Positions 2,590 to 47,700 of a stretch of 64,000 nt of DNA are shown here, piece by piece. A program made the translations under genes and the position numbers. The DNA is taken from the IMG/VR virus record IMGVR_UViG_3300026088_000014, positions 13,039 to 77,038 of that record. The stretch is one strand, 5' to 3'. Source of the DNA: a virus. Lineage: Duplodnaviria > Caudoviricetes. How positions within the stretch are numbered: position 1 is the first letter of the stretch; each line of letters begins with the position of its first letter. The notes under the pieces are model-generated. The model made no database searches. It had not been told where the DNA came from and was given only the letters and a program-made list of their open reading frames with translations.

Positions 2590-3357
2590 CTATGATGACA
2601 CCACATAAGGTGAGGTTGGCGGGGTGAAGTTAGCGGTCCAAGCCGCCGTGTTATTAAGGATACGCAACTCATCGATCCAGCCATCAAAATGCGTTCCACC
2701 GTGATCCTCGTTGCCAACGGTCGGAGTTCCTGGCGATATATCCATCACCTGGGTACTGGTGTAATCCGCAACGGCTTTAGTGCCATCAACGAAGAGCCGC
2801 AGAGTCGTGCCAGCCCGCGTTACAGCGAAGTGATGCCAAACCAAGGTGTCGTTGACGGTGGGGCCAGTAATCGCCGGATCAACCGCGCCGACATCGACAT
2901 AGATGATATTATCGCTGAACCAGAAGATGTTGAGTGATCCAATGTCTCTGGCCGTAATCTCTCCGGTCGAATACATGATCGATGCATGCTGTGAATTTCG
3001 CATGGCCCAGAAATCAACGGTAAAGTCGTTCTGACGCGAGGCCATATCTGCGCTGCCGTCGAGCACCATCCAGCTGAATGGCGGCCCCACATCCGGCCCA
3101 ACCCGCAGCGATGAGACACCGAACTTGGCCTGCGCTTGGTCGAGAAAACAGTCAGCCCCCGACCCGCCGTTGCTGTCGATGGCGGCCCCGTTGCGATGCT
3201 GCCCGGTAGCGTCGACAAAGACCTGCGAGCCCTGCGACCCGTCAAAGTGCATCAGCAGGGTCGGGCTCTTAGTCACATTGGGAAATGACGGAACGACCAG
3301 CTGCGTATCCGAGGCTGGGATAATCCGGGGGACAAACTTTTTCGACTCATAAAGCAT
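2590..3357 (-). CDS. LamG/concanavalin A-like domain virion protein
   Basis: LLMHFDG, DFTVDFW, WHHFAVTRAGTTLRLFVDG and FDGWIDELRI motifs. Confidence 0.85.
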   Translation of the reverse strand: MLYESKKFVPRIIPASDTQLVVPSFPNVTKSPTLLMHFDGSQGSQVFVDATGQHRNGAAIDSNGGSGADCFLDQAQAKFGVSSLRVGPDVGPPFSWMVLDGSADMASRQNDFTVDFWAMRNSQHASIMYSTGEITARDIGSLNIFWFSDNIIYVDVGAVDPAITGPTVNDTLVWHHFAVTRAGTTLRLFVDGTKAVADYTSTQVMDISPGTPTVGNEDHGGTHFDGWIDELRILNNTAAWTANFTPPTSPYVVSS

Positions 3358-6122
3358 TATGTTTCCTCTATCGACACCGAAGCATTGTCGATGGCCGGAA
3401 CCTCTTCGGTCGAGACATCCGCCTGCCGAACTGCTGGTATTTCCTTGATTGAGACAACCGTAGTCGGCACACGCGACACAGCAGGTACTTGATTATAAAC
3501 AGTGATACCGAAGAATGCACTGTCACTGTTAACCTCGGTGGCCGAGATGGTGACAAATACATCCGAAAGAACCTGTTCCTGCGAGGTCTGGAAGAACCGC
3601 TGATACCTAGCGCCAAGACCGATCTTCAGACGCACAGGCTCGTTAAGTGGCGCAAACCACGCAATGGTGCGCACCAGATTGGGGAAGACCGGCGTCTCAG
3701 GTGTGAACGCCCGCTGATACGGCGCATTAAGCCACAGCTTCTTGCGCAACGGCGTCGAGAACGGCTGGTGCCAGGACTCAAAGCGCGAGACATCCGGCGT
3801 GAAAACCGAAGTGGTAAAGCTCTGATATTGGAAGCTGCGCGGATAGATGACGGTCGGCGATACGCTCGACACAAAGACCGGGGTCGGAATGATCGGCGCA
3901 GCGTAAGTCTGCTGCTGGCTGGTCAGCAGTGGCCGGCGAGCACGAACCGGAATCGACCACGGCTGGTGCCAGCCGTCCTCAAAGACTGCAGCAGCAGTTG
4001 GGGTAAACGTGCTCCAACTAAATGACGGCTGGCTGGCAACGCTCGGCTTGCGCCGTGTCGGCTCCGACCACGGTTGATGCCAACGACTCTCGAAGTCCTG
4101 AATGATCTGGGTTTCAGGATTGAGCGTCAGCCCGATGAACGCCTGCTGCAGATTGGCTTTGATGCCAATTTTCTGCCGAACAGGATCGGTCCATGGGTAA
4201 ATCCACTTATCAACCGTGACTGTCTCAAAGACCGAGGTGGCTGGAGCGGTAAACGACGGCTGCTCGGAAACCGGGAAACGACGGAAGCGTACTGGCTCAG
4301 ACCATGGCTGGTGCCAACGGCTCTCGATCGTTCCGGTTAATTGATCGTCACTGAGATGTGGCCAACTCAGCGCTTCCTGTAGCGATGCCCGCAGTCCGAT
4401 CTTCTGTCGAACCGGCTCGGTCCATGGATAGACCCACTTATCAAGTGTGACGACTTCCGGAGTGGAGTTGTCATCAATAAAGGCCGTGACCTGTAGCGCC
4501 GTTGGGATACGCCGAGTTCTGACCGGCTCAGACCATGGGAAGTGCCAGCGGCTTTCAAAGTCTTGGCTGATCTGCGTGTCTGGATTGAGCGTCAGGCCGA
4601 TAAAGGCTTGCTGCAGCCCGGTCCTGAGACCGATCTTCAACCTGACTGGATCGGTCCACGGGTAGATCCATTTATCGACAGTGACCGTCTCGAATACGGA
4701 CGTTGCCGGGGCAGCCGCGGCCTGCTGCTGCGCGGTCAGTAACGGCGGCTTGATGCGAACCGGATCTGACCAAGCGAAGTGCCAGCGACTCTCGATGTCT
4801 TGGCTGATTTGCGTCTCAGGATCGAGGACCGGCGCAATGAACGCTTGCTGCAGGTAGGTCTTGAGACCAATCTTGGTCCTGACCGGATCAGTCCAAGGAT
4901 AGATCCATTTATCCGAAGTAACGAACTCCGGCGTAAAGACCGGCGCGTGGTAGGCAGACTGTTCCGCTGTCGGGAAGCGACGGAAACGAACCGGCTCCGA
5001 CCACGCATACGTCCACTTGTCGACGGTGACGACTTCTGGAGTAAAGAGAGTCTGCGCGACCGCCTGTTGCTCGGCGGTCGGGAATCTCTTGAACCTGACT
5101 GGTTCTGACCACGGATAGTGCCATCTGCTCTCGAACTGATCGACGATCTGCGTCTCGTCATCGAGAACTGGACCGATCGCCGCTTGCTGAAGCGCCGCAC
5201 GCAGTCCGGGCTTTGCTGGCGTTGGTGTTTCAAGCCAATGGAACCAGCTATCAACATCCACGACCTCTGTCGTAAATGGCGTCTGGATTCCGCCATCGGA
5301 TGTTTCCAGCGCGCGGGCTGCCGCCGGATCGCGCTTGAGCCTGACAGGATCGACAAACGCCTTGTACCAACTGTCGATGTCGACATCGGGCTGCGGCGTA
5401 TAGGCAAGGAACGGCTGTTCGCCGGTCGGCAGCTGCCGCTTGGTTCTTACCGGTTCAGACCACGGGAAATGCCAGCGCGACTCAAACTGATCGATGATTT
5501 GCGTTTCATCATCGAGCACAGGGCCGATCGCTGCTTGCTGCAGCGACGCGCGTAATCCTGGCTTCTGCCTGACCGGCTCAGTCCACGGGTAGACCCACTT
5601 GTCGACCGTGACTGTTTCGGCAGTCGTGACAAATGGTGTGTACGCCAGAGACGGGTACTGGAATGCCTGCTGGAATATGACCGCACTGGTCCCGTGCGGG
5701 ACAGCAATTACCTGCGGCGGAGAAAAATCTATCGTGGCATCGAGAGCCAGCGTGATGAATCGCCGCGGATCGATCTTAACGCGAACCGGCTGTTCAAGCG
5801 GTCGATACCAACTATCGACATCTATTGCCGCTGGCGGGATAAACGGCGCTGAGATTAGGCCATCGGATGTTTCCAGCGCGCGAGCACTACGTGGATCACG
5901 ACTGACGCGAACTGGATCGCGCCATGCCGCAAACCACTTATCGACAGTGACGGTCTCAGGTGGAACAAAGGCTGGCTCAGTATGCGACTGATACTGGAAG
6001 CGGCCTTTGTAGGTGACCTGCGAGGAACAGGTGACGTTGATGACAGCAGTAACGACCGGAACGGCGACAACCGCGACGAAGGCTAATTCTTGATATTGTC
6101 GCTGGTTTCTGAAGAAGGGCAC
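3357..6122 (-). CDS. 921-aa tandem-repeat protein, putative virion fibre/shaft
   Basis: About 19 copies of (D/E)-x-W-x-x-P-W-x-(E/D)-P-V-R within the structural operon. Confidence 0.75.
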   Translation of the reverse strand: MPFFRNQRQYQELAFVAVVAVPVVTAVINVTCSSQVTYKGRFQYQSHTEPAFVPPETVTVDKWFAAWRDPVRVSRDPRSARALETSDGLISAPFIPPAAIDVDSWYRPLEQPVRVKIDPRRFITLALDATIDFSPPQVIAVPHGTSAVIFQQAFQYPSLAYTPFVTTAETVTVDKWVYPWTEPVRQKPGLRASLQQAAIGPVLDDETQIIDQFESRWHFPWSEPVRTKRQLPTGEQPFLAYTPQPDVDIDSWYKAFVDPVRLKRDPAAARALETSDGGIQTPFTTEVVDVDSWFHWLETPTPAKPGLRAALQQAAIGPVLDDETQIVDQFESRWHYPWSEPVRFKRFPTAEQQAVAQTLFTPEVVTVDKWTYAWSEPVRFRRFPTAEQSAYHAPVFTPEFVTSDKWIYPWTDPVRTKIGLKTYLQQAFIAPVLDPETQISQDIESRWHFAWSDPVRIKPPLLTAQQQAAAAPATSVFETVTVDKWIYPWTDPVRLKIGLRTGLQQAFIGLTLNPDTQISQDFESRWHFPWSEPVRTRRIPTALQVTAFIDDNSTPEVVTLDKWVYPWTEPVRQKIGLRASLQEALSWPHLSDDQLTGTIESRWHQPWSEPVRFRRFPVSEQPSFTAPATSVFETVTVDKWIYPWTDPVRQKIGIKANLQQAFIGLTLNPETQIIQDFESRWHQPWSEPTRRKPSVASQPSFSWSTFTPTAAAVFEDGWHQPWSIPVRARRPLLTSQQQTYAAPIIPTPVFVSSVSPTVIYPRSFQYQSFTTSVFTPDVSRFESWHQPFSTPLRKKLWLNAPYQRAFTPETPVFPNLVRTIAWFAPLNEPVRLKIGLGARYQRFFQTSQEQVLSDVFVTISATEVNSDSAFFGITVYNQVPAVSRVPTTVVSIKEIPAVRQADVSTEEVPAIDNASVSIEET
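3630..5950 (-). repeat. Coding tandem repeats of about 35-42 aa, alternating VDKW..PWT(D/E)PVR and ESRWH.PWSEPVR types
   Basis: 19 motif copies counted by hand; near-identical DNA repeats, e.g. atcggatgtttccagcgcgcg twice. Confidence 0.9.
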
Positions 6123-39766: not shown

Positions 39767-39843
39767 GAGCAGGTGTCCAGAATGGTTACGGATGTGTACT
39801 GCAAATCCGCAATATGTGGGTTCGACTCCCATCCTGCTCTCCA
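39767..39843 (+). tRNA. tRNA-Cys(GCA)
   Basis: Acceptor GAGCAGG/CCTGCTC, U73 discriminator, encoded CCA, loop CTGCAAA, GGGTTCGACTCCC; anticodon stem has a G-U pair and a U-C mismatch. Confidence 0.85.
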
Positions 39844-43153: not shown

Positions 43154-43340
43154 GTCCATCCACCCAGTCAGCAATGCTGACCCTGTTCTTGGTTGCTTTG
43201 GATATTTTCAGAATCCACTCGGCTCTTGGTTTGCGTCCATTGATCCGCCACTTGCAGACCGCCGAGTAGGATGCGCCGATTTGTGTCGCGAATTCTTGTG
43301 ACGTTATTTCCTTATCGATCAAGTATTTGTCGAATTTCAT
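43131..43340 (-). CDS. Cro-like HTH repressor
   Basis: 69 aa; ITSQEFATQIGASYSAVCKWR...P; RBS GGAG. Confidence 0.8.
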   Translation of the reverse strand: MKFDKYLIDKEITSQEFATQIGASYSAVCKWRINGRKPRAEWILKISKATKNRVSIADWVDGHGKDKLD

Positions 43341-43359
43341 AAAAATCTCCAGAAATTCC

Positions 43360-43394
43360 TTGACGGAGTTTCACGGTCGTACTATCACGATCGT
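43360..43394 (+). promoter_or_regulatory. Sigma70-like promoter TTGACG-N17-TATCAC with overlapping direct repeats TCACGRTCGT (putative operators)
   Basis: -35 at 43360-65, -10 at 43383-88; repeats at 43371-80 and 43385-94. Confidence 0.55.
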
Positions 43395-43427
43395 CGGGAG
43401 ATTACAACACGAAAGAATTCGCAGGCT

Positions 43428-43470
43428 TTCTTTTTTCTCTCTCACCTCCGGTGAGAGAGAGAAAAAAGAA
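43428..43470 (+). promoter_or_regulatory. Pyrimidine/purine long hairpin upstream of the RAMP gene
   Basis: TTCTTTTTTCTCTCTCACC-TCC-GGTGAGAGAGAGAAAAAAGAA. Confidence 0.75.
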
Positions 43471-43510
43471 CCCCGGCGATCCCGCTGGCGCTCTCTACAA
43501 GGAGATTACG

Positions 43511-44173
43511 ATGCTTGATAAAGTAAAACCGAGGGCCACGTCGGTCATTCCGACAACGAGAGTTACGATTACCCCTCCGAAACTAGGAAGAGCCAAGGTT
43601 AGAATCGTCGGCACCGCTCCATATATTCAAAATCGTTTTAGTTCTGACAACCGCGACAAGATGCTTGCGGCTCAAAAGGAGGGATCGGGAGCAAAAAGAA
43701 CTCGCAAGGCAAAGGCCCCCAAAGACTTCGAGAAGATTTTTAAGGCTTCAATGCACATTTCCCAAAAAGGCTGGATTGGTATTCCGGCCACTGCATTGCG
43801 GAACGCAATGATCGATGCTTGTCGGCTGACCGAAATGGACATGGTGCGGGCAAAGATGTGCATCAAAATCATTCCTCAAGGATTGGATACCGAAAACCTA
43901 GAGGGACTTGTTGAAATCAAAGGCACGCCAAGAATGCACATTGAGCGTGTAAAAGTTGGCATCGCGTCAACAGATTTAGCGTCGCGAGCGATGTTCGAGA
44001 AGTGGGAATCGACGTTCGAGATCGAGTGGGACGATGATGTGTTCAAGGCTCAGGATATCGTTAACCTTCTTGCCAGAGCCGGATGGCAAGTTGGCATAGG
44101 CGCTGGTCGCCCCCTCTCAAAGATGAGCGGCGGCACTGGTAAAGGCACATTTGAAGTCGATATGAAAGGATAA
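43511..44173 (+). CDS. Stand-alone Cas7/RAMP-superfamily protein (Vipr-like)
   Basis: RIVGTAPYIQNRF, IGIPATALRNAMIDAC (RAMP IP.x.s.lk motif), DLASRAMF, C-terminal G-rich loop AGWQVGIGAGRP...GTGKGTFEV; RBS AAGGAG. Confidence 0.75.
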   Translation: MLDKVKPRATSVIPTTRVTITPPKLGRAKVRIVGTAPYIQNRFSSDNRDKMLAAQKEGSGAKRTRKAKAPKDFEKIFKASMHISQKGWIGIPATALRNAMIDACRLTEMDMVRAKMCIKIIPQGLDTENLEGLVEIKGTPRMHIERVKVGIASTDLASRAMFEKWESTFEIEWDDDVFKAQDIVNLLARAGWQVGIGAGRPLSKMSGGTGKGTFEVDMKG

Positions 44174-44178
44174 GACAA

Positions 44179-44634
44179 ATGAGCATTCAAGACGAACTCC
44201 TTCTCATCAAAGGCGACAGCGAACTCCTTACCGGAGAAGAGGTTGTAAAGTGGGCACGCGCTCATCCAGACTCAGAACTCTATAACGACCCCATCTTCTG
44301 TGGCTGGGATGAAAAGAAATCGGCCTATGAACACTGGCTATGGGGCGCAAGACGTTTGATTGCGCTGCATGTCGTCTACGAGGATGGTGAGCGAAAATTT
44401 GTCTCACTGTCTGTTGACAGGGCCAGAGATGGCGGCGGCTACCGGGATATGGACGAGGTGCTCCGCAGCAAGGCCCTGCATGAAGTCATGTTGGCCGATG
44501 CGTTGCGCGAACTTGAGAGGATGGAAGCAAAGTACAATAGACTTCTACAGCTCAAGCCAGTTTGGCGGGCAGCCGCCAGAGTACGTGGAGCGCAACGGAA
44601 GGGGAAAGGAGGGGGTGCAGGAAAGGCAGCTTAG
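44179..44634 (+). CDS. Helical accessory protein co-transcribed with the RAMP gene
   Basis: LTGEEVV..AR.HPDS.L...F.WD.K.AYEH.L..AR.LI...GGYR...EVL...ALREL. Confidence 0.75.
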   Translation: MSIQDELLLIKGDSELLTGEEVVKWARAHPDSELYNDPIFCGWDEKKSAYEHWLWGARRLIALHVVYEDGERKFVSLSVDRARDGGGYRDMDEVLRSKALHEVMLADALRELERMEAKYNRLLQLKPVWRAAARVRGAQRKGKGGGAGKAA

Positions 44635-44876
44635 CAGGCCCAGCTCAGCACAGCTTAGCCGAGTCAAGCCCGGCACAACCCAGCGCAGCATAGCAAAGCA
44701 GGCCAAGCGGTGCAGAGCGAAGTGTAGCTTGGAGAAGCCGAGTGTGGCATGGCAAAGCAGGCGCGGCCCAGCGAAGCTTAGCTTAGTCAAGACCGGCCCA
44801 GTATTGCCCAGCAAAGCAGGCAAAGCAAAGCCAAGTGTAGCGGGGCGAAGCATAGAAAAGTGAAGCACAGCGAGAA
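44633..44876 (+). ncRNA. Pentamer-periodic array (RGY-NN)n: four 53-64 nt units delimited by AGCAGGC; putative guide RNAs
   Basis: 48 in-register triplets: 32 AGY, 10 GGC, 6 other. Boundaries at 44633, 44697, 44756 and 44815. Confidence 0.8.
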
Positions 44877-44885
44877 ATAAAGACA

Positions 44886-45617
44886 ATGAGTGAAGTTGGT
44901 CATAACCTTCCGCCAAGCATGACAACTACAGCCGGAGAGATCATGCGCGATCTCTCTGGCTGGCTTTCTGAGCATCCTGTCATTCAGGATGAAACCGAAG
45001 CTAAAGAAGCAAAGATTTTTATTGATAGAGCAAGATTGGGATTAAAGGATTTAGAGGATGAACGGGTAAATCTAGTTAAACCGCTTAATCAGCAATTGGA
45101 GCAAATCAATGAGCATTACCGACAACCACGAGACACTCTCAGAAAAGTCCTCGATGAGCTCGAACGTCGAGTTACCGGATTTCTCACAGCTGAAGAGGCG
45201 AGACATAGACAGGATATTGCAGAAGCTAAGCGAGTTGCGGAGGCTGCTGAAGTCGCTGCGCGGGAAGCTGAGCGGCAAGAGTTGGCTGTCTTTGAACAAG
45301 CTAAGGCTGGAGAGCTTGGACTTGACGTTGCAGCTGTTACACTGGAAGCGAATGCAAAGTTTGAAACGTGGAAAAAAGCCAAGCGCGCGGAAATCCGCGA
45401 GGAAAGGGAAAAGGTAACACTTCCCAAAGGACTCACCCGCCCCAAGCGGATGCGAGATTATGAGACGCTTGTTGTCACAGACGTTGTTGCGGCAGTGCAG
45501 GTGATGAAGGATAGTGACCGCATCATCGAGGCCGTGCGAAAATCCGCACGGTCATACCAGAAAGTCTACGGTCATTATCCGCCGGGAATTGAAGTCAAGA
45601 TAGAGCGGAAGTTATAA
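44886..45617 (+). CDS. Coiled-coil phage protein (Gp157/Gam-like character)
   Basis: GHN.PP N-terminus; LEDERVNLVKPL...INEHYR; long coiled coil. Confidence 0.6.
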   Translation: MSEVGHNLPPSMTTTAGEIMRDLSGWLSEHPVIQDETEAKEAKIFIDRARLGLKDLEDERVNLVKPLNQQLEQINEHYRQPRDTLRKVLDELERRVTGFLTAEEARHRQDIAEAKRVAEAAEVAAREAERQELAVFEQAKAGELGLDVAAVTLEANAKFETWKKAKRAEIREEREKVTLPKGLTRPKRMRDYETLVVTDVVAAVQVMKDSDRIIEAVRKSARSYQKVYGHYPPGIEVKIERKL

Positions 45618-46802: not shown

Positions 46803-46885
46803 ATAATGCCGCTAACACAATCTGAGATGTTTTTCATGATTATTCTTCTTGCAATAGGCGCATGGAATATTGCCGTGAGGCTTCC

Positions 46886-47107
46886 ATGACTGAACTAATG
46901 CCGGAACCAACACCAGAACAAATCGATGCGGCGGCTCGGGCAATCTTTGAGCACATGACCGACATCAACGGAGACGAGAAAGCCGCTGCGGCGCTAACGC
47001 CCGAGAAGAAGCTACAAACAACTCAGGAACCGACACAAGAGCAGATCGAGGCGGCGGCTCGGGCGCTGAAAGCATTGGCGGCGCTAACGCCCGAGAAGAA
47101 GGACTAG
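46886..47107 (+). CDS. Cassette gene with two EQI(D/E)AAARA repeats
   Basis: Internal duplication; ends TPEKKD. Confidence 0.55.
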   Translation: MTELMPEPTPEQIDAAARAIFEHMTDINGDEKAAAALTPEKKLQTTQEPTQEQIEAAARALKALAALTPEKKD

Positions 47108-47203: not shown

Positions 47204-47317
47204 ATGCCGGGGCGAATTTGGTGTTTCCTATTTCACTGGCGCGGAAGAACCTATGCCGATGGATGGATTTGTCGTCGGTGCGGTCGAATGTGGCTTAGGC
47301 CAGAGAGGACTAGATAA
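47204..47317 (+). CDS. Cassette gene, 37-aa Cys/His peptide (DUF1660-like)
   Basis: IWCFLFHW...WICRRCGR. Confidence 0.5.
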   Translation: MPGRIWCFLFHWRGRTYADGWICRRCGRMWLRPERTR

Positions 47318-47700
47318 TGCCGGAACCAACACGAGAGCAGATCAGGGCGGCGGCCAAGGCTATGGCGGCGCGGCGCGGCATTGAGTTGGACAAGATACCG
47401 CTTGCATGCCTCGTTGACTGGCTTGAATCGGCGGAGGACGCCCTCACCGCCGCTGCGGCAGTATCGCCCGAGACAACGCAAGAGCAGATAGAGGCGGCGG
47501 CTAGAGCAATATGGCAAACACTCTTTCCGCACCTTCCTTATCAAACCGGATGTAGCGCCGCCGCCCAAGCCGCACTCAAGGCCGCTGCGGCGCTAACGCC
47601 CGAGAAGGACACCGCCCCCGGTCACACTGATCTGATGGTGTCGCCCGAGAGCATAGAAGAATATTTCGCGGCGTTGCCGCCCGAGCAGGAACGCAAATGA
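47317..47700 (+). CDS. Cassette gene with EQI.AAA repeats
   Basis: Junction start; two repeats. Confidence 0.6.
   Translation: MPEPTREQIRAAAKAMAARRGIELDKIPLACLVDWLESAEDALTAAAAVSPETTQEQIEAAARAIWQTLFPHLPYQTGCSAAAQAALKAAAALTPEKDTAPGHTDLMVSPESIEEYFAALPPEQERK

Follow-up and report, generated by a model that had tools for sequence, protein, structure and literature searches.

The 64,000-nt stretch of DNA analysed here (the window) covers positions 13,039-77,038 of the record IMGVR_UViG_3300026088_000014, a virus genome of 77,038 bp in all. At 44633-44876 on the + strand, it carries an array of 5-nt repeats in which a nearly constant triplet, mostly AGC or AGT, alternates with two variable bases (NN). 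Pentamers of this kind are known from VIPR, a CRISPR-related RNA-guided silencer of rival mobile DNA described in 2026, in which Vipr, a stand-alone RAMP protein, is combined with an accessory gene (vap) and with guide RNAs built of GGY/NN pentamers (bioRxiv 10.64898/2026.04.26.720920). The question raised by this locus is whether an array dominated by AGC and AGT, and not by the canonical GGY, belongs to a VIPR system. Since the VIPR publications allow "a related consensus" besides GGY, the AGC array was treated as a variant and not as grounds for exclusion. The data below make it very probable that the segment 43511-44876 is a phage VIPR system whose array specifies guide RNAs (vrRNAs).

A pentamer array beside a RAMP gene

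The array occupies the interval between the stop codon of a vap-like open reading frame (ORF; 44179-44634) and the ATG of the next gene at 44886. Its self-match is 0.53 at a lag of 5 nt, 0.48 at lag 10 and 0.45 at lag 15, compared to about 0.22 at other lags, and the lag-5 rhythm stands at z = 9.0 relative to 2000 shuffles. When the 77-kb genome was scanned in 244-nt segments, the array scored highest at lag 5 (0.536; runner-up outside the array, 0.356); it is the single 5-nt array within the window. Tandem Repeats Finder recovers it as fragments only, because no more than three of every five bases repeat. Read from each AGCAGGC, the array parses without phase errors into four units of 11, 10, 10 and 10 pentamers (NN plus triplet). 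The locus is composed as follows:

43511..44173 (+): vipr, RAMP (Cas7-like) gene, 220 aa, predicted guide-RNA-binding subunit, assigned by fold and profile
44179..44634 (+): vap-like accessory gene, 151 aa, helical product, conserved neighbour of vipr
44633..44639 (+): AGCAGGC, the first of the boundary motifs; it shares bases with TAG, the stop codon of vap (44632-44634)
44640..44694 (+): unit U1, 11 pentamers, NN = CC TC AC TT CG CA CC AC CC GC AT
44695..44703 (+): boundary AAAGCAGGC between U1 and U2; a 4-nt unit, A-GGC, shifts the register by -1
44704..44753 (+): unit U2, 10 pentamers, NN = CA GG AG GA GT TT GA CG GT AT
44754..44762 (+): boundary AAAGCAGGC between U2 and U3
44763..44812 (+): unit U3, 10 pentamers, NN = GC CC GA TT TT CA CC CC AT CC
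44813..44821 (+): boundary AAAGCAGGC between U3 and U4
44822..44871 (+): unit U4, 10 pentamers, NN = AA AA CA GT GG GA AT AA GA AC

Unit U4 has no closing boundary and continues into the ribosome-binding region of the next gene. Over the 41 in-unit pentamers, the information content is 0.08 and 0.08 bits at the two NN positions and 1.07, 1.83 and 0.98 bits at the three triplet positions. The first triplet base is A in 32 cases, G in 7 and T in 2; the second is G in 40 of 41; the third is C in 31, T in 7 and A in 3. Whole triplets are distributed as AGC (22), AGT (7), GGC (6), TGC (2), AGA (2), AAC (1) and GGA (1). An original prediction, made from the letters of this DNA alone, had placed AGCAGGC at 44633, 44697, 44756 and 44815, with spacings of 64, 59 and 59 nt, and had listed four variable NN strings; positions and spacings were reproduced and the strings came out identical in our parse. 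Its tally of 32 AGY, 10 GGC and 6 other triplets among 48 becomes 33, 10 and 6 of 49 upon recounting, one boundary triplet having been counted differently. Thus, the features by which a VIPR pentamer array is recognized (same strand as the gene, constant triplet with hypervariable NN, at least four repeats, adjacency to the gene) are all found here.

Two open frames overlap the array, one of 167 aa on the + strand (44360-44863) and one of 126 aa on the - strand (44545-44925), and the region could be envisaged as coding for a low-complexity peptide repeat. We give this next to no probability: a 5-nt period is impossible as a codon repeat, no excess is seen at lags 3, 6 and 9, the + frame is out of frame with the well-supported vap gene, and in the arrays of relatives any frame would be broken by indels and by unit exchanges of 5n-1 nt. 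Folding of the array RNA was no better than that of shuffled sequences (z = +0.33) and a Rfam scan, hammerhead ribozymes included, gave no match for the array, as expected of an extended guide bound by protein. Promoter and terminator scans found none in or beside the array.

The protein encoded at 43511-44173 was examined by fold and by profile. Its AlphaFold2 (AF2) model, built on 32 homologues, has a pLDDT of 86, and the top matches listed by Foldseek against the PDB are CRISPR RAMP/Cas7-type chains (Cmr, Csm3, type VII; E ~5e-5, prob 1.0). The vipr locus of phiSUSP1 (KT454805) was located by the same lag-5 scan; hhalign comparison of the family profile with phiSUSP1 Vipr gave Prob 94.6% and E 6.7e-8 over 171 columns, while hmmsearch with the same profile against all PDB sequences returned a sole match, 36pp "SUSP1 Vipr protein" (E 1.2e-6). 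On the strength of these two profile matches, the product is identified as Vipr. It has 143 homologues, belongs to no Pfam or NCBIfam family and matches phrog_4652 (function unknown). A glycine-rich loop (G-loop), GIGAGRP...GGTGKG, lies in its C-terminal part. An alternative in-frame GTG at 43451 would extend the protein to 240 aa; relatives mostly measure about 215-230 aa. By its predicted fold and this loop, the protein conforms to the description of a stand-alone RAMP (RRM core, G-loop and thumb), and it lies outside any CRISPR-Cas locus: no CRISPR repeats were found in the window and no cas families among the neighbouring genes, the combination of 20-50 nt direct repeats and spacers with cas1/cas2 or effectors being absent.

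Pentamer arrays accompany the gene well beyond this phage. Nearly all of the 46 loci with a relative from bacterial genomes (35-47% identity) have at least one 5-nt array that adjoins the gene and shares its strand; the viral (11) and metagenome (10) loci likewise have such arrays beside the vipr homologue. The arrays run on the strand of the RAMP gene in R-G-Y sense, the same as in phiSUSP1. Homologues of the vap-like protein are encoded directly beside vipr in at least 30 loci (29-100% identity), so that the window locus, with its 151-aa neighbour in a 77,038-bp virus genome, has the virus-borne vipr-vap pair of a minimal VIPR locus. Its nearest relatives are viral and other metagenome contigs.

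These linkage data also bear on the notion that the repeats act as DNA, in the manner of iteron-like protein-binding sites, an origin or a recombination hot spot. Replication-type genes (DnaA-like helix-turn-helix (HTH), DUF1376) do lie 1-3 kb upstream on the other strand, and transcription of the array is only presumed. However, across phyla and contexts the repeats travel with the RAMP gene and not with replication genes, and always on its strand and in R-G-Y sense; hypervariable NN between fixed triplets, as well as the exchange of whole units (see below), would be senseless for iterons; and the homologous SUSP1 elements are proven RNAs. A DNA element is accordingly given a very faint probability.

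The constant triplet and the Vipr pocket

Departure from GGY had been claimed for this array from the outset. It turned out to be a trait of the whole Vipr clade and not noise: all 13 non-redundant loci with at least 65% identity to the window Vipr have an A-dominant position 1, and these loci form one branch of the tree with a support of 100/100. In the AGC clade, comprising 65 distinct units and 651 pentamers, the frequencies are A.63, G.17, T.15 and C.05 at position 1, G.89 at position 2, and C.82 and T.12 at position 3. The NN are near-uniform across these pentamers and only two pairs of guides resemble each other across loci; hence, in the comparison of related phages that the prediction had called for, the NN turn over while the triplets stay.

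More distant relatives have GGC as the constant triplet, save for one locus with CGC and one with GTC. In 29 loci at 48% identity or less, G occupies position 1 in 85-100% of cases, as computed over periodic xGC words. The GTC array, from a metagenome-assembled genome (MAG) of the Gemmatales (L037:4498-6430), is about 1.9 kb long and made of some 290 GTC/NN pentamers with GTC-A-GTC boundaries, beside a Vipr homologue. CGC/NN arrays were seen in two IMG/VR contigs (L056 and L057, ~1940-2331 and 3140-3531), upstream of a Vipr homologue with 44% identity.

Residues contacting the triplet are known from the cryo-electron microscopy (cryo-EM) structure of the SUSP1 complex (bioRxiv 10.64898/2026.04.26.720927), where H17 and the G-loop residue D177 read G1, R138 and W178 read G2, and a pocket including R179 holds Y3. 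Alignments by hhalign and MAFFT agree in placing H17 at N41 of the window protein, D177 at A198, R138 at R159 and R179 at R200; the pocket residues H17/D177 and W178 of SUSP1 thus contrast with N41/A198 and G199 here. Loci of the GGC type have an acidic residue, E198, at the D177 position (GIG-E-GRP), except for a GGC-type subclade (L036, L041, L042, L044) with A at this position and E at that of H17 (E41). The AGC clade combines N41 with A198 and has no acidic residue at either G1 contact. It retains R159 and R200, which agrees with a position 2 that is almost always G and a position 3 that is a pyrimidine. The GTC-type Vipr of L037 is without the arginine equivalent to R138, a G2 contact. 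In L056 and L057, E is kept at the D177 position and C occupies the H17 position; the pocket residues inspected appear to offer no explanation for the change from G1 to C in these arrays.

We propose that the order A>G>T at position 1 of the AGC clade arises because its Vipr lacks an acidic residue at both G1 contacts. Taken further, the AGC clade might show how the VIPR repeat code has been re-tuned in nature, in that E198A together with N41 switches or relaxes recognition of base 1, loss of the arginine in L037 accompanies the change from G2 to T, and E41 keeps G1 in the subclade with A198. We hold this view tentatively, at somewhat less than an even chance; covariation of triplet and pocket appears as a correlation between sequences and the AGC clade has a single origin. 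If the pairings are causal, they would amount to a small protein-RNA specificity code predicting mutually orthogonal Vipr/vrRNA pairs. The rules for VIPR have so far come mainly from a pair of type II systems that are close relatives of each other. With its relatives, the present locus makes up a natural series of constant triplets (GGC, AGC, CGC and GTC) in which the AGC and GTC changes go with substitutions at the G1/G2 contacts and the CGC change has no such explanation, rendering the determinants of repeat recognition directly testable and suggesting a route to orthogonal pairs for multiplexed silencing. A statement linking triplet changes to substitutions of G1/G2 contact residues was not found in section 5 of the structure paper, nor by term searches in the text of the other VIPR publications.

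Unit boundaries and the targeting rule

The idea that AAAGCAGGC might be a boundary signal was borne out by comparison of close relatives. While the array of L058 (97% Vipr identity) is identical to that of the window, L059 (93% Vipr identity) keeps U2, U3 and U4, with one constant-triplet substitution, and has two unrelated units of 13 and 14 pentamers (L059:3075-3221) instead of the window U1 (44640-44694). The junctions between L059 and the window lie exactly at GCAGGC, and this swap of whole units identifies GC-A-GGC as the unit boundary. Seen from the array as a whole, entire guides have been gained or lost at its vap-proximal end. Across the AGC clade, the distance between motifs is 5n+3 in 81 of 110 cases; each boundary is therefore a repeat one base short. 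Distant relatives inspected have a boundary of the same triplet-A-triplet form (GGC-A-GGC in L027 and L005, GTC-A-GTC in L037), and a longer motif, GGCACCGCAGGC, is found in L008 and L043. Altogether, these data support the conclusion that AAAGCAGGC behaves as a unit boundary. Throughout the family, the one-base-short repeat might serve to end units or to direct processing without any RNA structure, and such an arrangement would fit the published legend on "staggered" tail-less arrays.

In VIPR, the NN pair with the DNA target and every third base of the target is skipped (bioRxiv 10.64898/2026.04.26.720920). To see how guides of the AGC clade read their targets, 49-65 guides were compared with 0.44-0.69 Mb of related phage DNA, allowing for 0-3 skipped bases, with arrays masked and with shuffled-NN sequences as controls. 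An excess over the controls was seen at a skip of 1 nt only. The guide at L067:198-255 matches L066:170-201, within a vipr gene, at 21 of 22 bases, again at the 1-nt skip only; we estimate the chance expectation of such a match at ~3e-4 over all guides and positions searched. Ten further relatives are matched by this guide at 19-20 of 22 bases. The site in L066 encodes the Vipr G-loop segment GIGAGRPLSK, and all 10 skipped bases are third codon positions. At just 1 of the 10 skipped positions does the target base agree with position 1 of the guide triplet; the pentamer is therefore read as NN plus a skip, and a reading in which triplet position 1 also pairs with the target (NNN) was rejected for the clade.

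A guide homologous to that of L067 (L068:10674-10735) differs from it at the NN of Arg, Leu and Ser codons. These are also the codons at which vipr genes within the clade alternate between CGN and AGR, CTN and TTR, and TCN and AGY. The two guides thus spell the first two bases of each codon of a rival G-loop, with differences between guide and gene falling mainly at codons for these three amino acids. This looks like a trace of escape and counter-escape; anti-vipr guides and codon-family switching could record an arms race which a wobble-tolerant code forces onto six-fold degenerate codons. When the peptide readings of guides were compared with 120 Vipr homologues, only the L067 guide was picked out. 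Guides against the vipr genes of relatives are known in SUSP1-like phages (10.64898/2026.10.15.759431), and the vipr-directed guides of the AGC clade, from one guide lineage, appear to be the same behaviour in an unrelated clade.

From these elements the following sequence of events can be envisaged. The array would most likely be co-transcribed with vipr and vap, from the + strand, and, as is characteristic of VIPR, processed to RNAs of about 50-100 nt to which Vipr binds. If the SUSP1 complex is taken as the model, each pentamer would be occupied by one Vipr protomer, with its constant triplet buried and its NN left exposed. Through its 10-11 NN, a unit would then pair with a DNA target of which every third base is skipped, and transcription of the target would be silenced; likely targets are genes of rival phages or of other mobile elements, read in the register of their codons. 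Units would be delimited by the GC-A-GGC short repeat and not by a structured 3' tail. By breaking the 5-nt register, the short repeat probably ends the protein filament and marks the site at which the transcript is cut or trimmed.

Several points weigh against the reading of this locus as a working VIPR system. Transcription, processing, filament assembly, silencing and the targets of U1-U4 are steps that we infer. The change of GGY to AGY is among those reported to abolish silencing in SUSP1 (fig. S12B legend); AGY may be workable here in spite of this loss because the G1 pocket is altered (N41/A198), and function with AGY would depend on that alteration. The boundary motif precedes every unit of the window and none follows U4, a layout that is reversed in L048, so that a role as 5' or as 3' handle can be argued both ways; in some relatives the opening boundary is missing. 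The 1-nt skip draws on one guide lineage (L067 and its homologue in L068), and the L067 guide also matches its own vipr gene at 18 of 22 bases, compared to up to 21 of 22 in rivals.

The search for targets of the window guides weighs on the same side. Of the gapped-pattern searches that the original prediction had proposed, that of IMG/VR gave no target for U1-U4 and that of alphaproteobacterial genomes, made with U1, gave nothing convincing. Exact 1-nt-skip patterns of each of the four units had 0 matches in IMG/VR, and so did a 9-NN core of U1. An 8-NN core of U2 had 8 matches, none better than 17/20, and an 8-NN core of U3 had 14, both at chance level. Nor did the window guides find a match with three or fewer mismatches in five related phage genomes, and these genomes taken whole yielded nothing above shuffles. 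The predicted NN-x-NN rule, with skipped bases falling on wobble positions, is upheld for the clade: it agrees with the published VIPR rule and with the L067 guide of the clade (21/22, 10 of 10 skips at wobble positions), but with no target for U1-U4 the amino acid decoding proposed for U2 stays a translation and not a match.

Two candidates were set aside in the course of this search. U3 matches at 19/20, in frame, three homologous contigs with an open frame of ~1055 aa (putative tail protein), which count as one independent event with about even odds of arising by chance; with a GC content of 44%, compared to 54.7% in this DNA, and with none of the other window guides converging on them, they were rejected. 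U1 was also compared with 401 genomes from the order to which a Bradyrhizobium genome belongs, with 34 matches at three or fewer mismatches, against 14 for the reversed control; many of the 34 are mutual orthologues. The best match, at 20/22 and in codon register, lies at L103:7585-7616 (alphaproteobacterial genome G639) in a DUF2232 membrane gene beside rplI, whose orthologues in two other genomes match at 19/22; it was judged to be chance or at best a lead. Within the phage's own genome, self-matches reach at best 14-16 of 20-22 bases, no higher than shuffled controls, which argues against self-targeting.

The lack of targets found for U1-U4, the GGC triplets persisting at 17% of in-unit positions and the silencing-abolishing effect of the same substitution in SUSP1 are what one would expect if the array were the decaying, non-functional remnant of a GGY array, in which G-to-A drift at position 1 had destroyed binding. 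This is improbable in our judgement. A-dominance is common to the 13 loci of the clade, at 65-100% protein identity and each with a different NN set, and drift would not hold A at position 1 while the NN turn over fully. Positions 2 and 3 are still 89% G and 82% C and 81 of 110 motif distances conform to the 5n+3 register; L058, with 97% protein identity, has the very same array; the protein has a matching substitution at the G1 contact; and a guide of the clade matches a rival vipr gene at 21/22.

The locus among known VIPR systems

Closest to the window locus is type II VIPR, represented by Escherichia phage SUSP1 and a Pseudomonas fulva prophage (Vipr, vap1 and vrRNAs; 10.64898/2026.04.26.720920,.720927, PDB 36pp). 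Each of the two is carried by phages and encodes one small RAMP, the homology of which shows in profile and fold alike, next to one small accessory gene; in each, the pentamer arrays run on the strand of the gene, with about 10-12 repeats per unit; the 1-nt-skip, wobble-aligned rule and guides aimed at rival vipr genes are shared with the window clade. The differences concern the triplet, G-G-Y in type II and A>G>T, G, C>T in the window clade, and the end of the guide: SUSP1 has a structured pseudoknot 3' tail after the repeat tract, whereas the window units have no tail and abut via the 9-nt AAAGCAGGC. The type II accessory protein, vap1, is unrelated to that of the window, and here the array lies only downstream of vap. 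With neither vap1 nor a structured pseudoknot 3' tail, the window locus falls outside type II as defined.

Class 1 CRISPR backbones (Csm3, Cmr4, type VII Cas7) are alike in providing the best structural matches and in forming a RAMP filament on the guide, with bases flipped at a fixed period. They differ in having repeats and spacers along with other cas and adaptation genes, none of which is present at the window locus, and in their period, 6 nt in both guide and target, compared to 5 nt of guide and 3 nt of target in VIPR, where guide information is discontinuous.

Repeats other than GGY have been described before. NNNGG, YNNNG and NNNNG repeats are mentioned, as are "staggered arrays", in the Methods and the legend to fig. 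S18 of 10.64898/2026.04.26.720920; a further publication reports 21 clusters in which Vipr-like neighbours go with different triplets, for instance GAC/NN, CAC/NN, WGT/NN and TGH/NN (10.64898/2026.10.21.760802). Written as C-NN-A-G, the window repeat fits the description of YNNNG arrays; its tail-less units, offset by one base, resemble staggered arrays, in which neighbouring vrRNAs abut or overlap by 1 nt, as far as the legend to fig. S18 goes. AGC/NN is not named in the text of the VIPR publications, figures and tables apart. As those texts have it, therefore, VIPR itself, the skip rule, alternative consensus sequences, staggered arrays and other triplets are already published. What this locus adds is protein-RNA covariation, a boundary grammar and unit exchange, that is, a tail-less way of delimiting guides and whole-unit turnover between near-identical phages, together with a case, from one guide lineage, of one phage aiming at the vipr gene of another outside Enterobacteria. 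From the standpoint of genome annotation, the locus is otherwise unremarkable, a well-formed representative, with a variant repeat code, of an established family.

The accessory protein yields little to comparison. Its AF2 model is helical, with a pLDDT of 91; Foldseek and VIA-align returned generic helical matches only and no informative fold. It shows no similarity to SUSP1 vap1, has no Pfam family and gives a weak match to phrog_15946. One further feature belongs to the locus:

43175..43510 (+): intergenic, between vipr and the GcrA-like gene that runs the other way; putative promoter of the vipr-vap-array operon

Judged by gene order, this region probably holds the promoter of the operon. 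It contains no ORF with a family match and no 5-nt array, and a scan for the sigma-70 consensus found no site in it.

On the far side of the array, the gene at 44886-45617 matches phrog_10477 (annotated exonuclease; E 1.3e-10). A gene of this type follows the array in L058 and not in L048; it is probably not part of the VIPR system. Divergent from vipr, the - strand segment 40935-43174 encodes a DUF1376 protein, a protein with a DnaA C-terminal HTH and a GcrA-like cell-cycle regulator, the last of which points to an alphaproteobacterial host. A sugar-pathway gene of the phage (26714-27841) has at most 55% identity to sequences of 301 alphaproteobacterial genomes and is uninformative on the host. 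There is a single tRNA gene, tRNA-Cys (GCA), at 39767-39843. Finally, the only other lag-5 signal in the window, a weak one at 47324-47397, is coding repetition and no array: the small ORFs 46862-47107 and 47317-47700 have in common repeated EQI(E/R)AAA...ALTPEKK segments.

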